Source: Fermentimonas sp.
GTDB lineage: Bacteria > Bacteroidota > Bacteroidia > Bacteroidales > Dysgonomonadaceae
Reading direction: 5' to 3'
DNA length: 64,000 nt
Assembly: GCA_028709385.1 (NCBI GenBank)
Contig: JAQVXD010000002.1
Coordinates: 43,721 to 107,720 of the forward strand
Position 1 is the stretch's first letter, and every line of letters begins with the position of its first letter. A program made the translations under genes and the position numbers. Positions 6,194-37,712 of the stretch are shown one piece after another. A model generated the notes under the pieces. The model was not told where the DNA came from and did no database searches. It saw only the letters and a program-made list of their open reading frames with translations.

Positions 6194-8575
6194 ATGTCCA
6201 ATTTATTTAAACAAAAAAACATGAGACTTCAAGCTATTGTAATTAGAATCTGTGTAATAATTTCTATGTTGGTATTTTTAAGTTTATCTCTATCTGCTCA
6301 AAATAATCAGACGGTAAAAGGAAAAGTTTTTGATATTGACACACATGAACCTCTCATAGGAGCTGCTGTTGTTATATTAGAATCTGAACCTCTCTTAGGG
6401 GGTACGACTAATTCAGACGGAAATTTCCTGATTGAGAATGTACCTTTGGGCCGTCACGATATTCAGGTTTCTTACATGGGATACAAACCTGTTTTAGTTA
6501 CTGAGCTAATGGTGACATCAGGCAAAGAGGTTGTTTTAGAAACAGGCCTCGCACAAAGCACCACTGAAATGGATGAATTTGTTGTAACTGCAAATTCAAG
6601 AAAAGATAAGCCTCTTAATTCAATGGCACTTATAAGTGCCCGCACATTTACTGTTGAAGAGGCCGGTAGATATGCAGGCGGAATAAATGATCCTGCTCGA
6701 CTTGTTTCTGCTTTTGCCGGGGTTTCAGTGGGTAATGTGCAAAACAATTCGATAATTGTTAGGGGTAATGCACCTCAGGGGGTGTCTTGGCGACTTGAGG
6801 GTGTTGAGATTCCTACTCCTCATCACTTTGCAGGAGCAAATGTTACGGGTGGCGGCTTTTTTACTCTTTTCAGCAGTCAGATGCTGGCTAATTCTGATTT
6901 TTTTACAGGAGCTTTTCCTGCAGAATATGGGAATGCAACTGCTGCTGTTTTCGATATGAAATTTAGAAATGGCAACAGGGACAAGCATGAGCATTCCGCT
7001 CAAATAGGTGTACTGGGAATTGATATTTCGTCGGAGGGACCTATATCTCGAAAAAACGGCTCATCCTATCTCTTTAACTATCGATACTCAACAATGGGTT
7101 TACTGCATGACCTGAAAATATTGCCATCGGATCAGCTCTTTAAATATCAGGACTTGTCATTTAAATTCAACTTCCCGACAAGAAAGGCAGGTACATTCTC
7201 GTTGTGGGGAATCGGAGGTATTGATAAAAGTACTGCTCCTGCTGAAAACGACTCTACTTTATGGGAACTTGACTACCATAGATTGGGAATGAACTGGGAT
7301 ATGTATATGGGGTCAGTGGGACTAAGTCATAAAATTATACTAAATGAGAAGAGCTACCTGCATTCTAACGCTTCTTTCTCAGGATCTGTAAATGATCTTA
7401 ACTCCGACAGGCTCGATAATGAGTTGACGTTGCAACCTGATATGAGACTTAAGAATGGATCATCAAATGCATCCTTATCATCAACACTAAATTATAAATT
7501 CAACCCAAATTTAAACATGAGAACAGGTATTGTTGCCAAGAATATATTTTACGATCTTGATCTGTCAGGAACTCAAAACTATATTCCTGAAACATATCAG
7601 TCACTTGTTAAAGAGGAATGCAAAGCTTATTCCGGTGAAGCTTTCATGCAATTTCAATATCATATTTCTCCTTCTGTAACAGCAAACGGAGGTATCCATA
7701 GCAATTATTTTGGTGTAAATGATGAGTTAACACTGGAGCCAAGACTTGGATTGCGATGGGCATTCCTGAAGGATCAGACATTTAGTTTGGGTTACGGTAT
7801 TCACAGCCGCAGCGAAGAACTGCGCTTTTATCTTTTAGAAGTTGATGGTAAACAGCCTAACAAACAACTTCGAACTTCTAAAGCACATCATGCAGTGGCA
7901 GGTTACGATTGGCGCATTAACAACTTTAGCCGCTTTAAAGCAGAAGCATATTATCAGTCTCTGTATGATTTTCCTGGAATGGAAAACAGCTCTTATTCAC
8001 TGATTAACTTCAAACAGGAATATACTTTTAATAAAGTACTTGTGAATAACACAGAAGGATATAATTACGGGATTGATCTAACATACGAGCGTTTTATGCA
8101 CAACAACTATTACTACTTGCTTACAGCATCTTTATATGATTCAAAATATAAAGGGGGTGATAATATATGGCATAACACCAGATACAACGGAAATTATGTG
8201 GCGAACGCACTTTTCGGAAAGGAGTTCTTTTTCAAAGAAAACAATAGGGTGCTTGATTTTAACATTAGATTGAGTGTATCGGGCGGAGAGCGTTACACCC
8301 CGGCTTTGAAAGATGAAACCGAAAGTCAGAAAAGAATTATTGAAGACGAAAGCCGGGCATACGAAAATCAGTTCCCTGCAATGGTTTACCTGGATTTTGG
8401 ACTGAATTACCGTATTAATCACAAAAAAGCATCAAGCCTTTTTTCAGTAAATATTAAAAATCTTGCAGGAACACCTGTTTATGAAGGTATCGACTATAAC
8501 TTGAAGACCGGAGAGATTCAGATTTCACAAAGCACCTTCATTTTACCTGTTTTAAGTTACAAGATTGAATTTTGA
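6194..8575 (+). CDS. TonB-dependent receptor with N-terminal carboxypeptidase-regulatory-like domain (start may be 6221)
   Basis: Signal peptide; 'VKGKVFDIDTHEPLIGAAV' domain; plug motifs 'DPARLV...IIVRGN...GAFPAEYGNA'; C-terminal YKIEF barrel signature. Confidence 0.9.
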   Translation: MSNLFKQKNMRLQAIVIRICVIISMLVFLSLSLSAQNNQTVKGKVFDIDTHEPLIGAAVVILESEPLLGGTTNSDGNFLIENVPLGRHDIQVSYMGYKPVLVTELMVTSGKEVVLETGLAQSTTEMDEFVVTANSRKDKPLNSMALISARTFTVEEAGRYAGGINDPARLVSAFAGVSVGNVQNNSIIVRGNAPQGVSWRLEGVEIPTPHHFAGANVTGGGFFTLFSSQMLANSDFFTGAFPAEYGNATAAVFDMKFRNGNRDKHEHSAQIGVLGIDISSEGPISRKNGSSYLFNYRYSTMGLLHDLKILPSDQLFKYQDLSFKFNFPTRKAGTFSLWGIGGIDKSTAPAENDSTLWELDYHRLGMNWDMYMGSVGLSHKIILNEKSYLHSNASFSGSVNDLNSDRLDNELTLQPDMRLKNGSSNASLSSTLNYKFNPNLNMRTGIVAKNIFYDLDLSGTQNYIPETYQSLVKEECKAYSGEAFMQFQYHISPSVTANGGIHSNYFGVNDELTLEPRLGLRWAFLKDQTFSLGYGIHSRSEELRFYLLEVDGKQPNKQLRTSKAHHAVAGYDWRINNFSRFKAEAYYQSLYDFPGMENSSYSLINFKQEYTFNKVLVNNTEGYNYGIDLTYERFMHNNYYYLLTASLYDSKYKGGDNIWHNTRYNGNYVANALFGKEFFFKENNRVLDFNIRLSVSGGERYTPALKDETESQKRIIEDESRAYENQFPAMVYLDFGLNYRINHKKASSLFSVNIKNLAGTPVYEGIDYNLKTGEIQISQSTFILPVLSYKIEF

Positions 8576-8680
8576 GTAATCGATCCATATCACACTTTGT
8601 CGTAAAAAGAAACCTTACAAAGGATTTTACCAAAAAGTAAATAAATGCATCTAATTATTTCATTTTATCAATTATTCATC

Positions 8681-8688
8681 TAACTTTG
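8681..8688 (+). promoter_or_regulatory. -7 promoter element (TAACTTTG) of the thr leader/operon
   Basis: Perfect TAnnTTTG ending 18 nt upstream of the leader ATG at 8707. Confidence 0.7.
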
Positions 8689-8706
8689 CATCAAATCTAC
8701 ATTAAA

Positions 8707-8781
8707 ATGTTTGAAATGCAGAGATTGTATTCAACATACTTAACTACAACAATGACTATGACCCCTTGGGGGGTTATATAA
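8707..8781 (+). CDS. Putative thr-operon leader peptide MFEMQRLYSTYLTTTMTMTPWGVI (24 aa)
   Basis: Translated by hand. Run ACT ACA ACA ATG ACT ATG ACC (TTTMTMT) at 8743-8763, lying between the promoter and thrA. Confidence 0.75.
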   Translation: MFEMQRLYSTYLTTTMTMTPWGVI

Positions 8782-8813
8782 TTTTTCACGTCCGTAAGCA
8801 GACACTGCTTTTT
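8757..8813 (+). terminator. Candidate attenuator hairpins in the thr leader
   Basis: tatgacccc/ggggttata stem (8757-8778) followed by taattttt; second stem aagcag/ctgctt (8796-8810) followed by ttt. Confidence 0.45.
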
Positions 8814-8898
8814 ATGCTAACCATTCGGTTTTTGCATTTAAAATCAACTTTTTATTATCAAATAATGCCGTTTAAATAACGGATAAAGTCTTTTACAG

Positions 8899-11343
8899 AT
8901 GAAAGTTATGAAGTTCGGAGGGACATCCGTTGGGAATCCCGAAAGTTTACAACAGGTCAAAGATATTATCACAAAAGAAAAAGAGCCGGTTATTGTTGTA
9001 GTTTCGGCACTTGCAGGTGTTACAGACAGACTGTTGCTTGCAGCAGATTTTGCGCTGAAAAGCAATCCCGGTTATAAGACACTGCTTGACGAAATAACTG
9101 AAAAGCACCGCATTGTAATAGAGAAGCTCGGCTTCTCTGACGAAGAGAAGCAACCATTGGTAAAAAAAACAGAACAGCTTTTCGATGAGTTGCAGAATAT
9201 CCTGCGGGGAGTATTTCTGATCGGCGATCTCTCTCAAAAGACATCCGACAAGATTGTTAGTTATGGTGAGCGCTTGTCATCGATTATATTAAACAGCTTG
9301 ATAACAGGATCACAGCTGTATGATTCGACTAAATTCATCAAAACCAACAAACAGTTTAAAAATCACATCCCTGATTTGAGTCGCTCCAATGAACTGATCA
9401 GGCAAACTTTTTCTGAAATGCCGCCTCCAAACATTGCTATTGTACCGGGGTTTATCTCTTCAAGTATTGATGATGATGACATAACTAACCTTGGAAGAGG
9501 CGGATCAGATTATACAGCTGCTATTATAGCAGCAGCGATGGATGCTACTATGCTTGAAATATGGACAGATGTGAACGGTTTCATGACAGCTGATCCCAAA
9601 ATAATTAACTCTGCTTATGTGATTGATGAGCTGTCATTCATCGAAGCAATTGAGCTTTCGAACTTTGGAGCAAAAGTGATATACCCACCGACAATATTTC
9701 CGGTTTATCATAAGAACATTCCTATTTATGTAAGAAATACATTTCATCCGGAAGAAAAAGGAACACTTATCCGGGATATCAAACCTACCAGTAACGGGAA
9801 GATAATCAAGGGTATCTCCTCTATTAATGATACTGCTCTGATTACTATTCAGGGACTTGGAATGGTGGGTGTTATAGGTGTAAATAAACGAATCTTTACT
9901 GCTCTGGCTGATAATGGTATAAGTGTATTCATAGTATCTCAGGCTTCTTCCGAGAACAGCACCTCTATAGGCGTAAGATCTCAGGATGCTCCTCTCTCTC
10001 AGAATGTACTTAATAAGGAGTTTGCGCATGAGATTGCGATGGGAAGTATAAATGAGATAATAGTTGAATATGACCTGGCAACTATAGCTATTGTTGGTCA
10101 GAACATGAAGCATGTACCAGGTATCGCCGGGAAATTCTTCGGGGCATTAGGCAGAAACGGTATTAGTATAGTTGCTCTTGCACAGGGTGCAGGAGAAACT
10201 AATATATCATGTGTTATATCCAAAACAGATCTTAGAAAATCTCTGAATGTTGTTCATGATTCCTTCTTCTTGTCTCCTTATCAGGAACTTAATCTTTTTG
10301 TTATAGGCACAGGCACTGTAGGCAGCAAGTTAATCGAGCAAATACGTAAGCAACTGTCAACACTAAAGGAACAAAATAAACTCAGAATTAATATAGTTGG
10401 TATTGCAAACGGCCGGAAGGCTCTTTTTAACAGGGAAGGGGTTTCACTTGACGGATACTACGAAACACTTATGGATAAAGGGGTCAAGAGCTCACCTGAA
10501 TACATACGGAACGAAATTATCAAAATGAATATATTCAACTCCGTATTTGTAGATTGCACTGCAAGTCCCGCAATTGCCGAACTTTATGGTGAACTGATGT
10601 CCAGGAATATATCTGTGGTTACAGCCAACAAGATTGCAGCGTCTTCAGATTACCAAAACTACAGTTATCTTAAGGAAACTTCTCGTAAAGCAGGTGTTAA
10701 GTTTTTGTTTGAAACAAATGTGGGTGCCGGTTTACCAATCATTAACACAATGAACTCTCTGATAAATTCGGGGGATAAGATAGTCAAACTGGAGGCTGTT
10801 CTTTCAGGTACACTGAATTTTATTTTCAACACCTTCAGTGAAGAGGTTCCATTCAGTAAAGCCGTGAGAATGGCAGTTGATGCTCAGTTTGCTGAACCCG
10901 ACCCGCGTATTGATTTAAGCGGACTTGATGTTACCCGAAAACTGGTAATTCTTTCACGTGAGGCGGGAGCAAAGGCTAATCAGTCTGACGTTGTTAAAAA
11001 ACTGTTCATTCCCGACAAGTATTTTGAGGGTTCGCTTGAAGAATTCTGGGAAACTGTTCCAGAACTGGACGAATCGTTTGAAGTGCGGCGCAAGGAACTG
11101 GCTAAACAGGGGAAAAGACTGCGTTTTGTGGCATCTTACGATAATGGTGCCTGTGAAGTAGGATTGCGTGAAGTAGAGAGCGGCCATCCCTTTTATGACC
11201 TGGAAGGAAGTAACAACATTATAATGATAACCACTGAACGTTACAACGAGTACCCGATGGTTATTAAAGGTTATGGAGCCGGAGCAAGCGTTACTGCTGC
11301 CGGTGTTTTTTCAGATATAATATCAATTGCAAACATTCGGTAA
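8899..11343 (+). CDS. thrA: Bifunctional aspartate kinase/homoserine dehydrogenase I
   Basis: KFGGTSV, LGRGGSDYTAA, two ACT domains, GTGTVG Rossmann motif, FETNVGAGLP, EPDPRIDLSGLDV. Confidence 0.97.
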   Translation: MKVMKFGGTSVGNPESLQQVKDIITKEKEPVIVVVSALAGVTDRLLLAADFALKSNPGYKTLLDEITEKHRIVIEKLGFSDEEKQPLVKKTEQLFDELQNILRGVFLIGDLSQKTSDKIVSYGERLSSIILNSLITGSQLYDSTKFIKTNKQFKNHIPDLSRSNELIRQTFSEMPPPNIAIVPGFISSSIDDDDITNLGRGGSDYTAAIIAAAMDATMLEIWTDVNGFMTADPKIINSAYVIDELSFIEAIELSNFGAKVIYPPTIFPVYHKNIPIYVRNTFHPEEKGTLIRDIKPTSNGKIIKGISSINDTALITIQGLGMVGVIGVNKRIFTALADNGISVFIVSQASSENSTSIGVRSQDAPLSQNVLNKEFAHEIAMGSINEIIVEYDLATIAIVGQNMKHVPGIAGKFFGALGRNGISIVALAQGAGETNISCVISKTDLRKSLNVVHDSFFLSPYQELNLFVIGTGTVGSKLIEQIRKQLSTLKEQNKLRINIVGIANGRKALFNREGVSLDGYYETLMDKGVKSSPEYIRNEIIKMNIFNSVFVDCTASPAIAELYGELMSRNISVVTANKIAASSDYQNYSYLKETSRKAGVKFLFETNVGAGLPIINTMNSLINSGDKIVKLEAVLSGTLNFIFNTFSEEVPFSKAVRMAVDAQFAEPDPRIDLSGLDVTRKLVILSREAGAKANQSDVVKKLFIPDKYFEGSLEEFWETVPELDESFEVRRKELAKQGKRLRFVASYDNGACEVGLREVESGHPFYDLEGSNNIIMITTERYNEYPMVIKGYGAGASVTAAGVFSDIISIANIR

Positions 11344-11378: not shown

Positions 11379-12587
11379 ATGAAGTATATAATAATTCTCG
11401 GAGACGGAATGTCTGACGAGCCAATTGCCGTACTTGGAAACAAAACTCCGCTTCAGGCAGCGCAGACACCCTACATGGATATGCTTGCCGGTAAAGGGAA
11501 AAATGGTTTACTTAATACTGTACCTGATGGCTTTTCTCCAGGCAGTGAGATAGCAAACCTCTCTGTATTAGGCTATGACATTCCCTCAGTATATGAGGGT
11601 CGCGGAGTACTTGAGGCTGCAAGTATGGGTGTAGAAATACTGCCGGACGAGGTAGCCATGAGATGTAATCTGGTCTGTATTGAAGGAGAAATACTAAAAA
11701 ACCATTCGGCCGGACATATTCCAACTGCTGAAGCAACAGAACTCATTCATTTTCTGAACGAAAAGCTGGGTGGTGATCAGTTTAGTTTTCACCCAGGTGT
11801 TTCGTACAGGCATGTTTTAAAAATTAAAGGGGGTAGTAAAAATATTATTTGTACACCACCTCATGATATTCCTGAAAAGCCTTATAAGCCTCATTTAATT
11901 AAACCGGGAAACAGTGATGCTGAATATACTGCAGAAGCGTTGAACAAGCTTATTTGTGCATCAAGGGAAATATTGACAGATCATCCTGCAAACAGAAAAA
12001 GAATGGCAGAAGGAAAAGATCCTGCCAACTCAATATGGCCATGGTCACCAGGATATCGCCCTAATATGCAAAGACTGACTGATATGTTTCCGATTAAAAG
12101 CGGATCTGTAATTTCGGCAGTTGACCTGATACGTGGTATTGGTGTATATGCAGGACTCGAAGTTATTATGGTAGAAGGTGCAACCGGTTTGTACGACACA
12201 AATTATGAAGGCAAAGCTGAAGCCGCAATTGAGGCATTAAAACAAAAGGACTTCGTATATCTTCATATTGAGGCCAGCGATGAGGCAGGTCATGAGGGAG
12301 ATGTGCCACTGAAGGTCAAGACCATAGAGTATCTGGATTCTCGTATAGTCAAACCAATATATGAAGAAATTAAAGACTGGGACGAACCTGTTACAATTGC
12401 AATTCTACCCGATCACCCTACTCCATGTGCAATTCGTACCCACACACGAGATGCAGTTCCTTTTCTTATTTGGCACAGGGATATACAACCCGACAGCGTA
12501 CAGACTTATGATGAATTTGCCGCTAAAGAGGGAAGTTACGGTTTACTGTTCGCCGACCAGTTCATGAAGACGATATTTAACATTTAA
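11379..12587 (+). CDS. ApgM-family cofactor-independent phosphoglycerate mutase-like protein (proposed homoserine kinase)
   Basis: GDGMSD, PGSEIANL, HIEASDEAGHEG and PDHPTP alkaline-phosphatase-superfamily metal motifs; located between thrA and thrC. Confidence 0.85.
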   Translation: MKYIIILGDGMSDEPIAVLGNKTPLQAAQTPYMDMLAGKGKNGLLNTVPDGFSPGSEIANLSVLGYDIPSVYEGRGVLEAASMGVEILPDEVAMRCNLVCIEGEILKNHSAGHIPTAEATELIHFLNEKLGGDQFSFHPGVSYRHVLKIKGGSKNIICTPPHDIPEKPYKPHLIKPGNSDAEYTAEALNKLICASREILTDHPANRKRMAEGKDPANSIWPWSPGYRPNMQRLTDMFPIKSGSVISAVDLIRGIGVYAGLEVIMVEGATGLYDTNYEGKAEAAIEALKQKDFVYLHIEASDEAGHEGDVPLKVKTIEYLDSRIVKPIYEEIKDWDEPVTIAILPDHPTPCAIRTHTRDAVPFLIWHRDIQPDSVQTYDEFAAKEGSYGLLFADQFMKTIFNI

Positions 12588-12611: not shown

Positions 12612-13916
12612 ATGCTATACTACAGTACAAAAAACAAGGATACCAAAGCAAGTCTGCAGGAAGCAGTAGTAAACGGATTAGCACCTGACAGAGGTTTATA
12701 TATGCCAGAACATATCCCTCAACTTCCTGCTGAGTTTTTTGAAGAAATTGTCAATAAAAGCCTACCTGAGATTGCTTCAGTTGTTGCAAAAGCCTTTTTT
12801 GGTGATGACATCAATAAAGACAATTTAGATTCAATAGTTACTGAAACTCTGAATTTCGATATTCCTCTAAAAGAAATTGATGAAGATATTTACGTCCTGG
12901 AGCTTTTTCACGGGCCTACTTTCGCATTTAAGGATGTGGGTGCACGTTTTATGGCCCGCATGTTATCTTTTTTCATAAAAGAGCGCAAACAGGATGATGT
13001 GAAGGTGCTGGTTGCTACCTCAGGTGATACCGGCAGTGCTGTTGCAAACGGTTTTCTGGGAGTTGACGGTATTCAGGTATTTGTGCTTTACCCTTCAGGC
13101 AAAGTCAGTAAAATGCAGGAAGCACAGTTTACCACACTCGGTCAGAATATTGTTGCCATTGAAGTTGATGGCACCTTTGATGATTGCCAGTCGTTGGTAA
13201 AATCAGCTTTTATGGATGAGGAACTTAATATACAGTTAAATCTCACCTCTGCAAACTCAATTAATGTTGCAAGATTCCTGCCTCAGTCATTTTATTACTT
13301 TTGTGGTTTTGCACAGATTGCAAAAACACTCAATGACAGAAACCTTTTGTTTTCTGTTCCAAGCGGTAACCTTGGCAACCTTACGGCAGGTCTTTTTGCA
13401 AAACGAATGGGATTGCCTGTAAACCGTTTTTTTGCTGCAAATAATAGGAATGATGTCTTTTATAAATACCTGAATACAGGTGAATATCAGCCAAAACCAT
13501 CAGTACAGACGATAGCAAATGCTATGGATGTGGGTGCTCCAAGTAATTTTGACAGGATTCTTGATTTATACGGAGGTCAGCATGAATCCATTAGTAGGGA
13601 TATAAAAGGATTCAGCTACAATGACTCTCAAATTGAAGAAACAATAAGTAATCTATACAAAAAATCAGGATACATACTTGATCCTCACAGTGCATGTGCT
13701 TACCAGGCTTTAAAAGAGGGAAAGAAACCTGGAGAAACAGGTATACTACTTGCTACTGCACATCCTGCAAAATTCAGAGAGACAGTGGAAAGATGTATTG
13801 ATTCGAAAATAGAGATTCCTGCAGATCTTGAGAAATTTACTCTTAAACAAAAGCACTCATATTCAATACCAAATGACTTCAATATTTTTAAAAAGGCGCT
13901 AATAAACCTGACTTAA
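12612..13916 (+). CDS. thrC: Threonine synthase
   Basis: ELFHGPTFAFKD (PLP lysine), ATSGDTGSA, SANSINVAR, VPSGNLGN, TAHPAKF. Confidence 0.97.
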   Translation: MLYYSTKNKDTKASLQEAVVNGLAPDRGLYMPEHIPQLPAEFFEEIVNKSLPEIASVVAKAFFGDDINKDNLDSIVTETLNFDIPLKEIDEDIYVLELFHGPTFAFKDVGARFMARMLSFFIKERKQDDVKVLVATSGDTGSAVANGFLGVDGIQVFVLYPSGKVSKMQEAQFTTLGQNIVAIEVDGTFDDCQSLVKSAFMDEELNIQLNLTSANSINVARFLPQSFYYFCGFAQIAKTLNDRNLLFSVPSGNLGNLTAGLFAKRMGLPVNRFFAANNRNDVFYKYLNTGEYQPKPSVQTIANAMDVGAPSNFDRILDLYGGQHESISRDIKGFSYNDSQIEETISNLYKKSGYILDPHSACAYQALKEGKKPGETGILLATAHPAKFRETVERCIDSKIEIPADLEKFTLKQKHSYSIPNDFNIFKKALINLT

Positions 13917-36908: not shown

Positions 36909-37712
36909 CTAAAACTGGAGATATGGTTTAAGTCGCTCAATATCTTCCGGAGTAAATTCAGCAAGCATTGAGAGCTCATCAATACTATTAATACTCCCCT
37001 TCCTTTCTCTTAGATTAACAATAGTTTTTACCTGCTCATAGTCAAGATATGGATGCCTGAGCAAATCACGAAACTCCAGTTCGTTTATATTCAGTTTACT
37101 ATAATTACTATCCTCGAATATATATATTTCTATCCTCCAATACAACTCATCATCGATACCATACACTTCCATAAGCTGCTCTTTATGTACATATCCGCCT
37201 AAAAGATTTTTGTACTTAACAATGCGTGAGGCATAAACGCTTCCTATACCCGGGATTTTTTTCCATTGAGTTGTATCCGTCTCGTTTAACCGGATTGACT
37301 CGCCTGCTTTTAGTTTTTCTGTTCGCGGGTAATTTGTAGCCTGTGTGTAAGGAAGTGATGAGCTTTCTATCGATTCGGATGATTCTTTTTCATCATTGAT
37401 AAAATTGTTGCTTTGATCATTTAATAACCTGCTTTGACTCTTAAAACCATCAGCTTTCTTTTTTTGTGTGTAAGATGTTCCGGGGCTGCTTGTAGGTTTT
37501 ACATTTGGTATAGAATAATCCTTTTTATTTTGAGATTCTCTGGAATTTGAGAACTCGTCTATAATGGAGTCATTTTGATTTATAAAAGATTCTGATGATT
37601 TTTTCTGACTTAAGAGAGTATTAAGTATAAGAGTTAGTAAAATCAGTATCAGCAGGAGAAGTACTGCTGACCGGGTTCCTCTGTTGTAATAAAAAAAATC
37701 CTTCCAGTTCAC
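36909..37712 (-). CDS. ComEA-like helix-hairpin-helix DNA-binding membrane protein
   Basis: N-terminal TM; LNETDTTQWKKIPGIGSVYASRIVKY..LLGGY; second unit LNINE...LLRHPY. Confidence 0.85.
   Translation of the reverse strand: MNWKDFFYYNRGTRSAVLLLLILILLTLILNTLLSQKKSSESFINQNDSIIDEFSNSRESQNKKDYSIPNVKPTSSPGTSYTQKKKADGFKSQSRLLNDQSNNFINDEKESSESIESSSLPYTQATNYPRTEKLKAGESIRLNETDTTQWKKIPGIGSVYASRIVKYKNLLGGYVHKEQLMEVYGIDDELYWRIEIYIFEDSNYSKLNINELEFRDLLRHPYLDYEQVKTIVNLRERKGSINSIDELSMLAEFTPEDIERLKPYLQF

Follow-up and report, generated by a model that had tools for sequence, protein, structure and literature searches.

The 64,000-nucleotide (nt) stretch of Fermentimonas sp. analyzed here (contig JAQVXD010000002.1, family Dysgonomonadaceae, order Bacteroidales; "the window" refers to this whole stretch) carries, directly in front of thrA, a short open reading frame (ORF) rich in threonine (Thr) and methionine (Met) codons, the last of which form one arm of a stable RNA hairpin, H1. 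Our analysis suggested that this element very probably regulates the thr operon as a ribosome-sensed leader. The sensor half of the element, a translatable ORF whose Thr and Met codons abut a stable hairpin, was well supported by comparison with relatives. On the output side, we infer that ribosomes would stall on these codons, that H1 would act as a terminator or pause site, and that the response would run toward read-through when the amino acids are scarce. That H1 is a terminator or pause site occluded directly by the ribosome appeared to us an evenly balanced proposition. The elements concerned are as follows.

8681-8688, + strand: putative -7 promoter element of the Bacteroidetes type, TAACTTTG, from a reading of the sequence; in 12 aligned leaders of the genus, TAnCTTTG keeps a constant spacing to the ORF
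8716-8781, + strand: conserved leader ORF, 21 codons plus stop (a 24-codon version starts at the in-frame ATG at 8707)
8743-8763, + strand: putative control codons ACT ACA ACA ATG ACT ATG ACC (TTTMTMT), a unique run with synonymous Thr-codon variation
8757-8778, + strand: hairpin H1, 9-base-pair (bp) stem and UUGG loop, with the last control codons as its 5' arm; -11.7 kcal/mol, terminator-like in a consensus scan
8761-8774, + strand: universal H1 core ACCCC-N4-GGGGU, abutting the Thr run in all clades
8899-11343, + strand: thrA, bifunctional aspartokinase / homoserine dehydrogenase, 814 amino acids (Pfam AA_kinase, ACT, Homoserine_dh)

Conservation of the Leader ORF Upstream of thrA

In all six frames of the 64-kb window, the run TTTMTMT was the only one of at least five Thr/Met residues; the expected number of runs of seven or more was about 0.0009. 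The preliminary description of this DNA had reported a short Thr/Met-rich ORF in front of thrA, and that ORF proved to be real, with TAACTTTG upstream and 117 nt (8782-8898) between its stop codon and the thrA ATG at 8899. Its start was revised. The first ATG, at 8707, does open the 24-codon frame originally described, ending with TAA at 8779-8781, but the start kept among relatives was the second ATG, at 8716 (M-Q-x-L-Y-S-T-Y...), and several species of the genus lacked the ATG at 8707 or had it out of frame.

Relatives were compared using the thrA loci of 24 species of the genus and of six other families. The leader ORF was found in all 22 same-genus loci that had enough upstream DNA, and its core consisted of M-Q-x-L-Y-S-T-Y, one to four variable residues, the Thr/Met run, P-W-G-V, and one final residue. 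Between species, the Thr codons switched among ACT, ACA, ACC, and ACG, with start, frame, and stop kept; read from the alignment, such synonymous changes are a coding signature. The segment TTGTATTCAACATAC (8724-8738), which encodes LYSTY, was invariant in the genus, third codon positions included, and no pairing partner for it was found. An N-terminal M-[LIV]-Y-[NS] recurred in leaders from other families.

Across the order, 401 genomes were drawn evenly and searched for the hairpin core, with 27 exact matches, compared with approximately 11 in a reversed control. Fifteen of the 27, representing at least eight families, preceded thrA by 82-241 nt. Named genomes were scanned for the hairpin core together with two preceding codons for Thr, isoleucine (Ile), or Met; at least 119 stretches matched and 80 loci were listed, 68 of which (85%) lay 81-343 nt upstream of thrA. 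Among the matches listed, carriers of the element before thrA were Proteiniphilum, Fermentimonas, Petrimonas, Limibacterium, and Anaerorudis, with Parabacteroides (including P. distasonis), other Tannerellaceae, Carboxylicivirga, Saccharicrinis, and Salinivirgaceae as further carriers, and one Flavobacterium and Solitalea as sporadic carriers outside Bacteroidales. R1, a covariance model of the leader core, matched in 21 of 41 Dysgonomonadaceae genomes, corresponding to 11 of 21 genera, and once in approximately 150 genomes from the rest of the class. To judge from this distribution, the leader element is old, patchy, and strongly linked to thrA. The preliminary description had expected short Thr/Met-rich ORFs to be conserved in relatives, and they were indeed kept across the genus, in half of the family's genera, and in several other Bacteroidales families. 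At one locus from a different genus of Dysgonomonadaceae (L201, contig C68 of genome G587), the LYSTY segment was retained upstream of thrA, the Thr run was gone, and a residual CCCU...GGGG hairpin was left.

Codon usage within the run was counted in 82 distinct leaders, with positions numbered back from the hairpin. Thr occupied positions -1, -3, -5, -6, and -7 in 100%, 87%, 54%, 45%, and 60% of the leaders, respectively, and Met occupied position -2 in 59% and position -4 in 30%. In Tannerellaceae, positions -2 to -4 swapped Thr and Met (TMT, MMT, TTT, MTT). The second amino acid depended on the clade: Met was specific to Dysgonomonadaceae and Tannerellaceae, and Ile (and serine) took its place in Marinilabiliales-like groups and one further family. 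In the leaders compared, these clade-specific additions of Met or Ile fit the pathway.

A Single Strong Hairpin on the Control Codons

H1 was the sole strong hairpin of the leader, at -11.7 kcal/mol versus -4 to -6 kcal/mol for the others. Its ACCCC/GGGGU stem was unchanged, without even compensatory swaps, in approximately 100 species, and the loop bases were free to vary (UUGG, UUAG, CUGG, CCGG, CCAG, UUGC, UUUG, CAUG). Covariation was seen at the ninth pair, which was C-G in seven species and U-A in three. This pair joins the last codon to the third base of a Thr codon, which accounts for the Met or Ile at the end of the peptide. The tryptophan (Trp) position of the PWGV segment read Trp, stop, Cys, Arg, Gln, Leu, or Met in different leaders, with the RNA stem retained, and in four species of the genus the ORF ended at a UAG within the loop, with the 3' arm and its flank retained. 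By these comparisons, H1 is constrained at the RNA level and PWGV is a by-product. PWGV as a functional or arrest peptide was ruled out by the variability of the Trp position alongside the kept stem.

In the family of Fermentimonas, H1, with its 9-bp stem, the TAA, and the T-run behind it, looks like an intrinsic terminator or a hairpin-dependent pause site. Together with TAATTTTT, it scored as terminator-like, but it overlapped the ORF and its U-tract was interrupted.

The invariance of the stem, combined with a free loop, exceeds what a generic hairpin would need, and this raised the question of whether the hairpin or palindrome is functional by itself, as a protein-binding RNA or DNA site or as the 3' end of a small RNA, with the ORF incidental and no sensing of transfer RNA (tRNA) charging. 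We regarded this as highly improbable, because every clade had an in-frame start, a synonymously varying Thr run, and a nearby stop codon (0-5 codons past the hairpin), because the clade-specific Met and Ile additions suited the pathway, and because 85% of the listed matches from named genomes preceded thrA.

Structure of the Downstream Leader

The preliminary description had treated the 117 nt after the ORF as plain non-coding leader. That view did not survive the genus alignment, in which three further conserved hairpins were found, along with two other conserved segments.

8779-8795, + strand: TAA stop, then a T-run (8782-8786) and a conserved spacer, with genus consensus TAAATTTTCACATCCG and scarcely any variation within the genus
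8796-8810, + strand: hairpin H2 (AAGCAG-ACA-CTGCTT) followed by TTT, terminator-like in the consensus scan, weak (-4.7 kcal/mol)
8814-8837, + strand: hairpin H3 (ATGC-T-AACC / GGTT-TTT-GCAT), with a compensatory change (A-U in six species, U-A in four)
8840-8853, + strand: conserved block AAAATCAAC followed by a T-run, from the genus alignment
8868-8882, + strand: hairpin H4 (CCGTT-TAAAT-AACGG), 16 nt before the thrA start, with 87% of alignment cells paired and one compensatory pair

For H1, H3, and H4 combined, 90% of the alignment cells paired, versus 32-48% in slid registers, with one compensatory pair per helix. H2 took a different form in other subclades of the genus, where its T-run was lost. 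H2 to H4 were weak (-4 to -6 kcal/mol) and were not found outside the genus; other clades had different downstream structures or almost none. No pairing partner for the spacer TAAATTTTCACATCCG was found in the rest of the leader or in the thrA start region. Pairing of the 5' end (AAAUUUACAU with AUGUAAAUUU) and a CAUC/GAUG closing helix were considered and dropped as unconserved or too short. On the minus strand, H4 (8868-8882) also scored as terminator-like (CCGTTATTTAAACGG plus a T-rich tail); no convergent gene ends there, and the likeness is probably incidental.

Proposed Mechanism and Alternative Explanations

Under the proposed mechanism of ribosome-sensed control, transcription would begin just past TAACTTTG, and a ribosome would translate the leader of 21-24 codons. 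When charged tRNA-Thr, and probably also charged tRNA-Met, is scarce, the ribosome would linger on the run of seven control codons, which leads straight into the 5' arm of H1. Stalled over the last four or five of these codons, it would keep that arm single-stranded, so that H1 could not form; the 3' arm, left free, may in addition pair with the lead-in of H3. RNA polymerase would then proceed into thrA. When Thr and Met are plentiful, the ribosome would leave at the stop codon; in that case, or if the leader is untranslated and no ribosome is present, H1 and H3 would fold, and with H1 folded most transcripts would end or stall within the 117-nt leader.

Several results weighed against this mechanism. 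The element was missing from part of the family: 10 of the 21 genera sampled had no R1 match, and among five such genera that were checked, all with thrA, four had no such leader and one had a decayed remnant. A universal T-run or pyrimidine tract after H1 was not supported across clades (mean of 4.51 versus 4.48 in control windows); the T-run was typical of Dysgonomonadaceae, and Tannerellaceae and some minimal leaders were without it. Enumeration of helices in the genus alignment produced none of at least 5 bp that competed with H1, apart from pairings of G-U only, and the best duplex of the H1 3' arm and spacer with the remaining leader was equal to that of shuffled controls, leaving no antiterminator beyond chance. 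The same tests did detect an antiterminator in the his leader of this genome and a second, weaker one, in its trp leader. A further objection is kinetic: a fast ribosome close behind the polymerase would be expected to block H1 just as a stalled one would; direct occlusion would consequently have the right sign only if ribosomes in the replete state trail the polymerase loosely at the T-run. Lastly, the Met codon at -2 belongs to the H1 stem and offers no free evidence for Met sensing. Because that codon and the last codon (Ile or Met) are partly set by base pairing in the stem, any Met sensing would rest mainly on Met at -4 and on the interchange of Thr and Met at -2 to -4 in Tannerellaceae. 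The proposal in the preliminary description that both tRNA-Thr and tRNA-Met are read was thus borne out by the conserved Thr and Met codons, but only in part, as Met at -2 is partly dictated by pairing. Its broader proposal of a ribosome-mediated attenuator likewise held in part: the sensor ORF is conserved, but the geometry is non-classical, no antiterminator emerged beyond chance, and the one strong hairpin overlaps the control codons.

Minimum-energy folds of full-length leaders from 11 clades, masked at the position of the ribosome, showed no state-specific terminator. The trp leader failed this full-length test as well, and folds of truncated transcripts were used instead. One candidate helix was found, which joins positions 8772-8781, the 3' arm of H1 and the stop region, to positions 8811-8822, the lead-in and 5' arm of H3. 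If real, it would make the leader a classical three-helix switch, with H1 as helix 1:2, positions 8772-8781 as region 2, and H3 as helix 3:4. With the ribosome stalled, region 2 would pair with 8811-8822 and prevent H3; with the ribosome at the stop codon, region 2 would be covered and H3 would form as the OFF signal. The truncated-transcript fold of the stalled state gave exactly this helix, enclosing H2, and the duplex reached -5 to -9 kcal/mol in most species of the genus, with 82.5% of alignment cells paired versus 24-50% in slid registers. The stop codon lies inside region 2, as in enterobacterial attenuators. Against these points, the helix was derived from the same sequences and showed zero compensatory changes, its mean z versus shuffles was only about -0.9, H3 has no U-tract and is not a canonical terminator, and H3 is confined to the genus, whereas the ORF and H1 are distributed more widely. 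We therefore considered a three-helix switch unlikely.

Rho-dependent attenuation would dispense with an antiterminator altogether. In this scheme, Rho would load on the naked leader of 80-340 nt, one or more ribosomes stalled on the Thr/Met codons would shield the RNA, and H1 would be a pause hairpin that synchronizes ribosome and polymerase. The scheme has the right sign and avoids the kinetic objection, and Rho attenuators that depend on an upstream ORF (uORF) and have a shielded rut site, in one case inside the uORF, have been documented (PMC12360218). It would also accommodate those leaders that have no terminator-like hairpin besides H1 and only an AU-rich spacer of approximately 60 nt. 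The ORF contained 22% C versus 13% G, but so mild a C bias is what ACN codons would produce in any case, and the strict invariance of the H1 stem would go unexplained. On balance, Rho-dependent attenuation seemed decidedly unlikely.

Across clades, the universal part of the element was only the Thr run and the invariant hairpin, its stop codon lying within or shortly past the hairpin, with no antiterminator and, in some clades, no terminator, and for this reason a new type of switch is conceivable. We put forward only tentatively that the family is a mechanistically new ribosome-sensing switch, widespread among Bacteroidales and scattered through the rest of Bacteroidia. Rather than working through helices that compete, such a switch might rely on the hairpin being recognized as a whole, either by the transcription machinery or by a factor such as Rho, an RNA-binding protein, or a protein for pausing or termination, an option that we found possible but doubtful.

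Two further outputs were tried and rejected. A translational switch of the Erm type was excluded in 68 leaders, as the thrA start did not pair beyond shuffles with the control codons and 5' arm of H1 or with the 3' arm of H1 and the spacer (mean z of +0.1 and +0.6, respectively). Frameshifting at hungry codons with read-through toward thrA was the other. The -1 frame relative to the leader was open on the + strand from 8715 to 8879, ending 20 nt before thrA, and a -1 frame open to within 30 nt of thrA was present in 12 of 24 species of the genus, compared with 4.6 expected from shuffles. In 68 leaders from several clades, the excess was small and present in both alternative frames (16 versus 10.3 and 20 versus 13.2), and the nearest relative was closed in both. 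The open -1 frame is probably a by-product of structured, stop-poor leaders.

The thr Operon and the Homoserine Branch Point

Downstream of thrA, the operon continues with two genes.

11379-12587, + strand: phosphoglycerate-mutase-like gene within the thr operon (Pfam PhosphMutase, Metalloenzyme)
12612-13916, + strand: thrC, threonine synthase (Pfam Thr_synth_N, PALP, THR4_C)

The phosphoglycerate-mutase-like gene, of the metalloenzyme superfamily, occupies the position expected for thrB, with thrA on one side and thrC on the other, and presumably encodes the alternative homoserine kinase of Bacteroidetes. ThrA was the only match to the Homoserine_dh domain of Pfam in the genome, which is 88% complete. 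A homoserine acyltransferase of the MetA type and two sulfhydrylase-type enzymes were encoded in the same genome; by this gene content, a route from homoserine to Met exists in this organism. With a sole homoserine dehydrogenase and these enzymes present, reading Met besides Thr would make physiological sense, and the argument of the preliminary description that ThrA feeds both branches held.

Comparison with Known Leaders

A cmscan of positions 8400-9100 against Rfam, at E values up to 10, returned only three chance-level matches to unrelated families, and the covariance model of the enterobacterial threonine leader thrL (Thr_leader, RF00506) did not match this region. Both leaders consist of a short Thr-rich ORF directly before thrA with a hairpin that includes the control-codon region. 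In thrL, starvation stalls the ribosome and read-through rises, and the same logic would be expected here. The Fermentimonas leader differs in having Met as the second amino acid where thrL has Ile, although Ile is present in the Marinilabiliales-like clades. It also differs in its layout: there is no clear antiterminator or separate GC-rich terminator, and the sole strong hairpin overlaps the control codons, with the stop codon directly after it. Attenuators with Thr, Ile, and Met codons have reportedly been predicted upstream of thrA in Pasteurellales by Vitreschak et al. in 2004, and the same work is said to have predicted some attenuators in Bacteroidetes/Chlorobi. If so, the Pasteurellales elements would share the logic proposed here, with one bifunctional ThrA feeding Thr, Ile, and Met and with Met codons in the leader, but they belong to another phylum and would be unrelated in sequence and have the classical terminator/antiterminator layout.

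A parallel for the position of the hairpin was provided by the pyrBI and pyrE attenuators of E. coli, in which the leader ORF likewise runs through the attenuator hairpin and the position of the ribosome acts without an antiterminator. Those systems sense the speed of the polymerase, through uridine triphosphate (UTP), and a close ribosome leads to read-through, whereas the thr leader would sense the speed of the ribosome at the codons of the hairpin arm.

The Rho attenuators tnaC, speFL, and cruR (PMC12360218) resemble the thr leader in that a short uORF with a stalled ribosome decides on transcription through a long untranslated spacer. They use arrest peptides and small-molecule ligands, whereas the thr leader peptide was unconstrained, with no conserved arrest peptide of the tnaC type, and its signal would be codon-specific tRNA charging. 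What the thr leader did share with ribosome-mediated attenuators in general was a short ORF predicted to be translated, enriched in codons for the end products, and conserved as a coding sequence.

Two other leaders in the same genome served as internal references. The trp leader (contig C78, 49929-50110; L058:1501-1680) matched the Bacteroid-trp model (RF01692) at 50.5 bits, a model that did not match the thr leader region, and had a strong terminator separate from its ORF, which is 18 codons long and includes two Trp codons side by side. Its antiterminator was not found in full-length minimum-energy folds and was present in truncated-transcript folds. The his leader, outside the window (contig C43, approximately 37248-37400, + strand), had four consecutive His codons followed by F-x-x-C-S-Q-A, 242 nt before a hisG-like gene, and a GC-rich terminator of 11 bp with a U6 tract; the 3' arm of this terminator is mimicked by the 3' end of the ORF. 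In truncated-transcript folds, the antiterminator of the his leader reached -15.1 kcal/mol when the ribosome was stalled, compared with -0.9 kcal/mol when it stood at the stop codon. The his leader peptide resembled the his leader of Flavobacterium psychrophilum given in the supplement of PMC9723704. The trp and his leaders share with the thr leader the leader-peptide type and the Bacteroidetes-type promoter; they have a separate strong terminator (at least 11 bp, GC-rich, with a U-tract) and stall-specific pairing with the 5' arm of that terminator in truncated-transcript folds, neither of which the thr leader has.

Significance

To our knowledge, experimental work on amino-acid control of gene expression in Bacteroidota is almost nil. 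In the full-text literature searched, no description of a thr leader in Bacteroidota was found, nor was the peptide motif. The principle is textbook; the sequence family and the layout with a hairpin on the control codons are uncatalogued and absent from Rfam, and the thr leader family could be put forward for an Rfam entry of its own. The leader-peptide elements of Bacteroidota in the literature searched were computational or transcriptome-based predictions only (trp, his, ilv, aromatic). Bacteroid-trp is a predicted leader (PMC2864571), the supplement of PMC9723704 gives the ilv, his, and aromatic leaders of F. psychrophilum as predictions, and the transcriptome paper on B. thetaiotaomicron describes small ORFs only as "reminiscent of leader peptides" (PMC7366714).

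Against this background, the thr leader would serve as a test case, being compact, easy to mutate, and conserved widely, with model organisms such as Parabacteroides distasonis among the relatives. Two questions are touched by it: whether attenuation coupled to the ribosome operates in a phylum without initiation led by Shine-Dalgarno sequences, and how a single hairpin on the control codons can work as a switch. The choice of Met or Ile in each clade may, in turn, read out which branches of the aspartate pathway are coupled to ThrA in each lineage.

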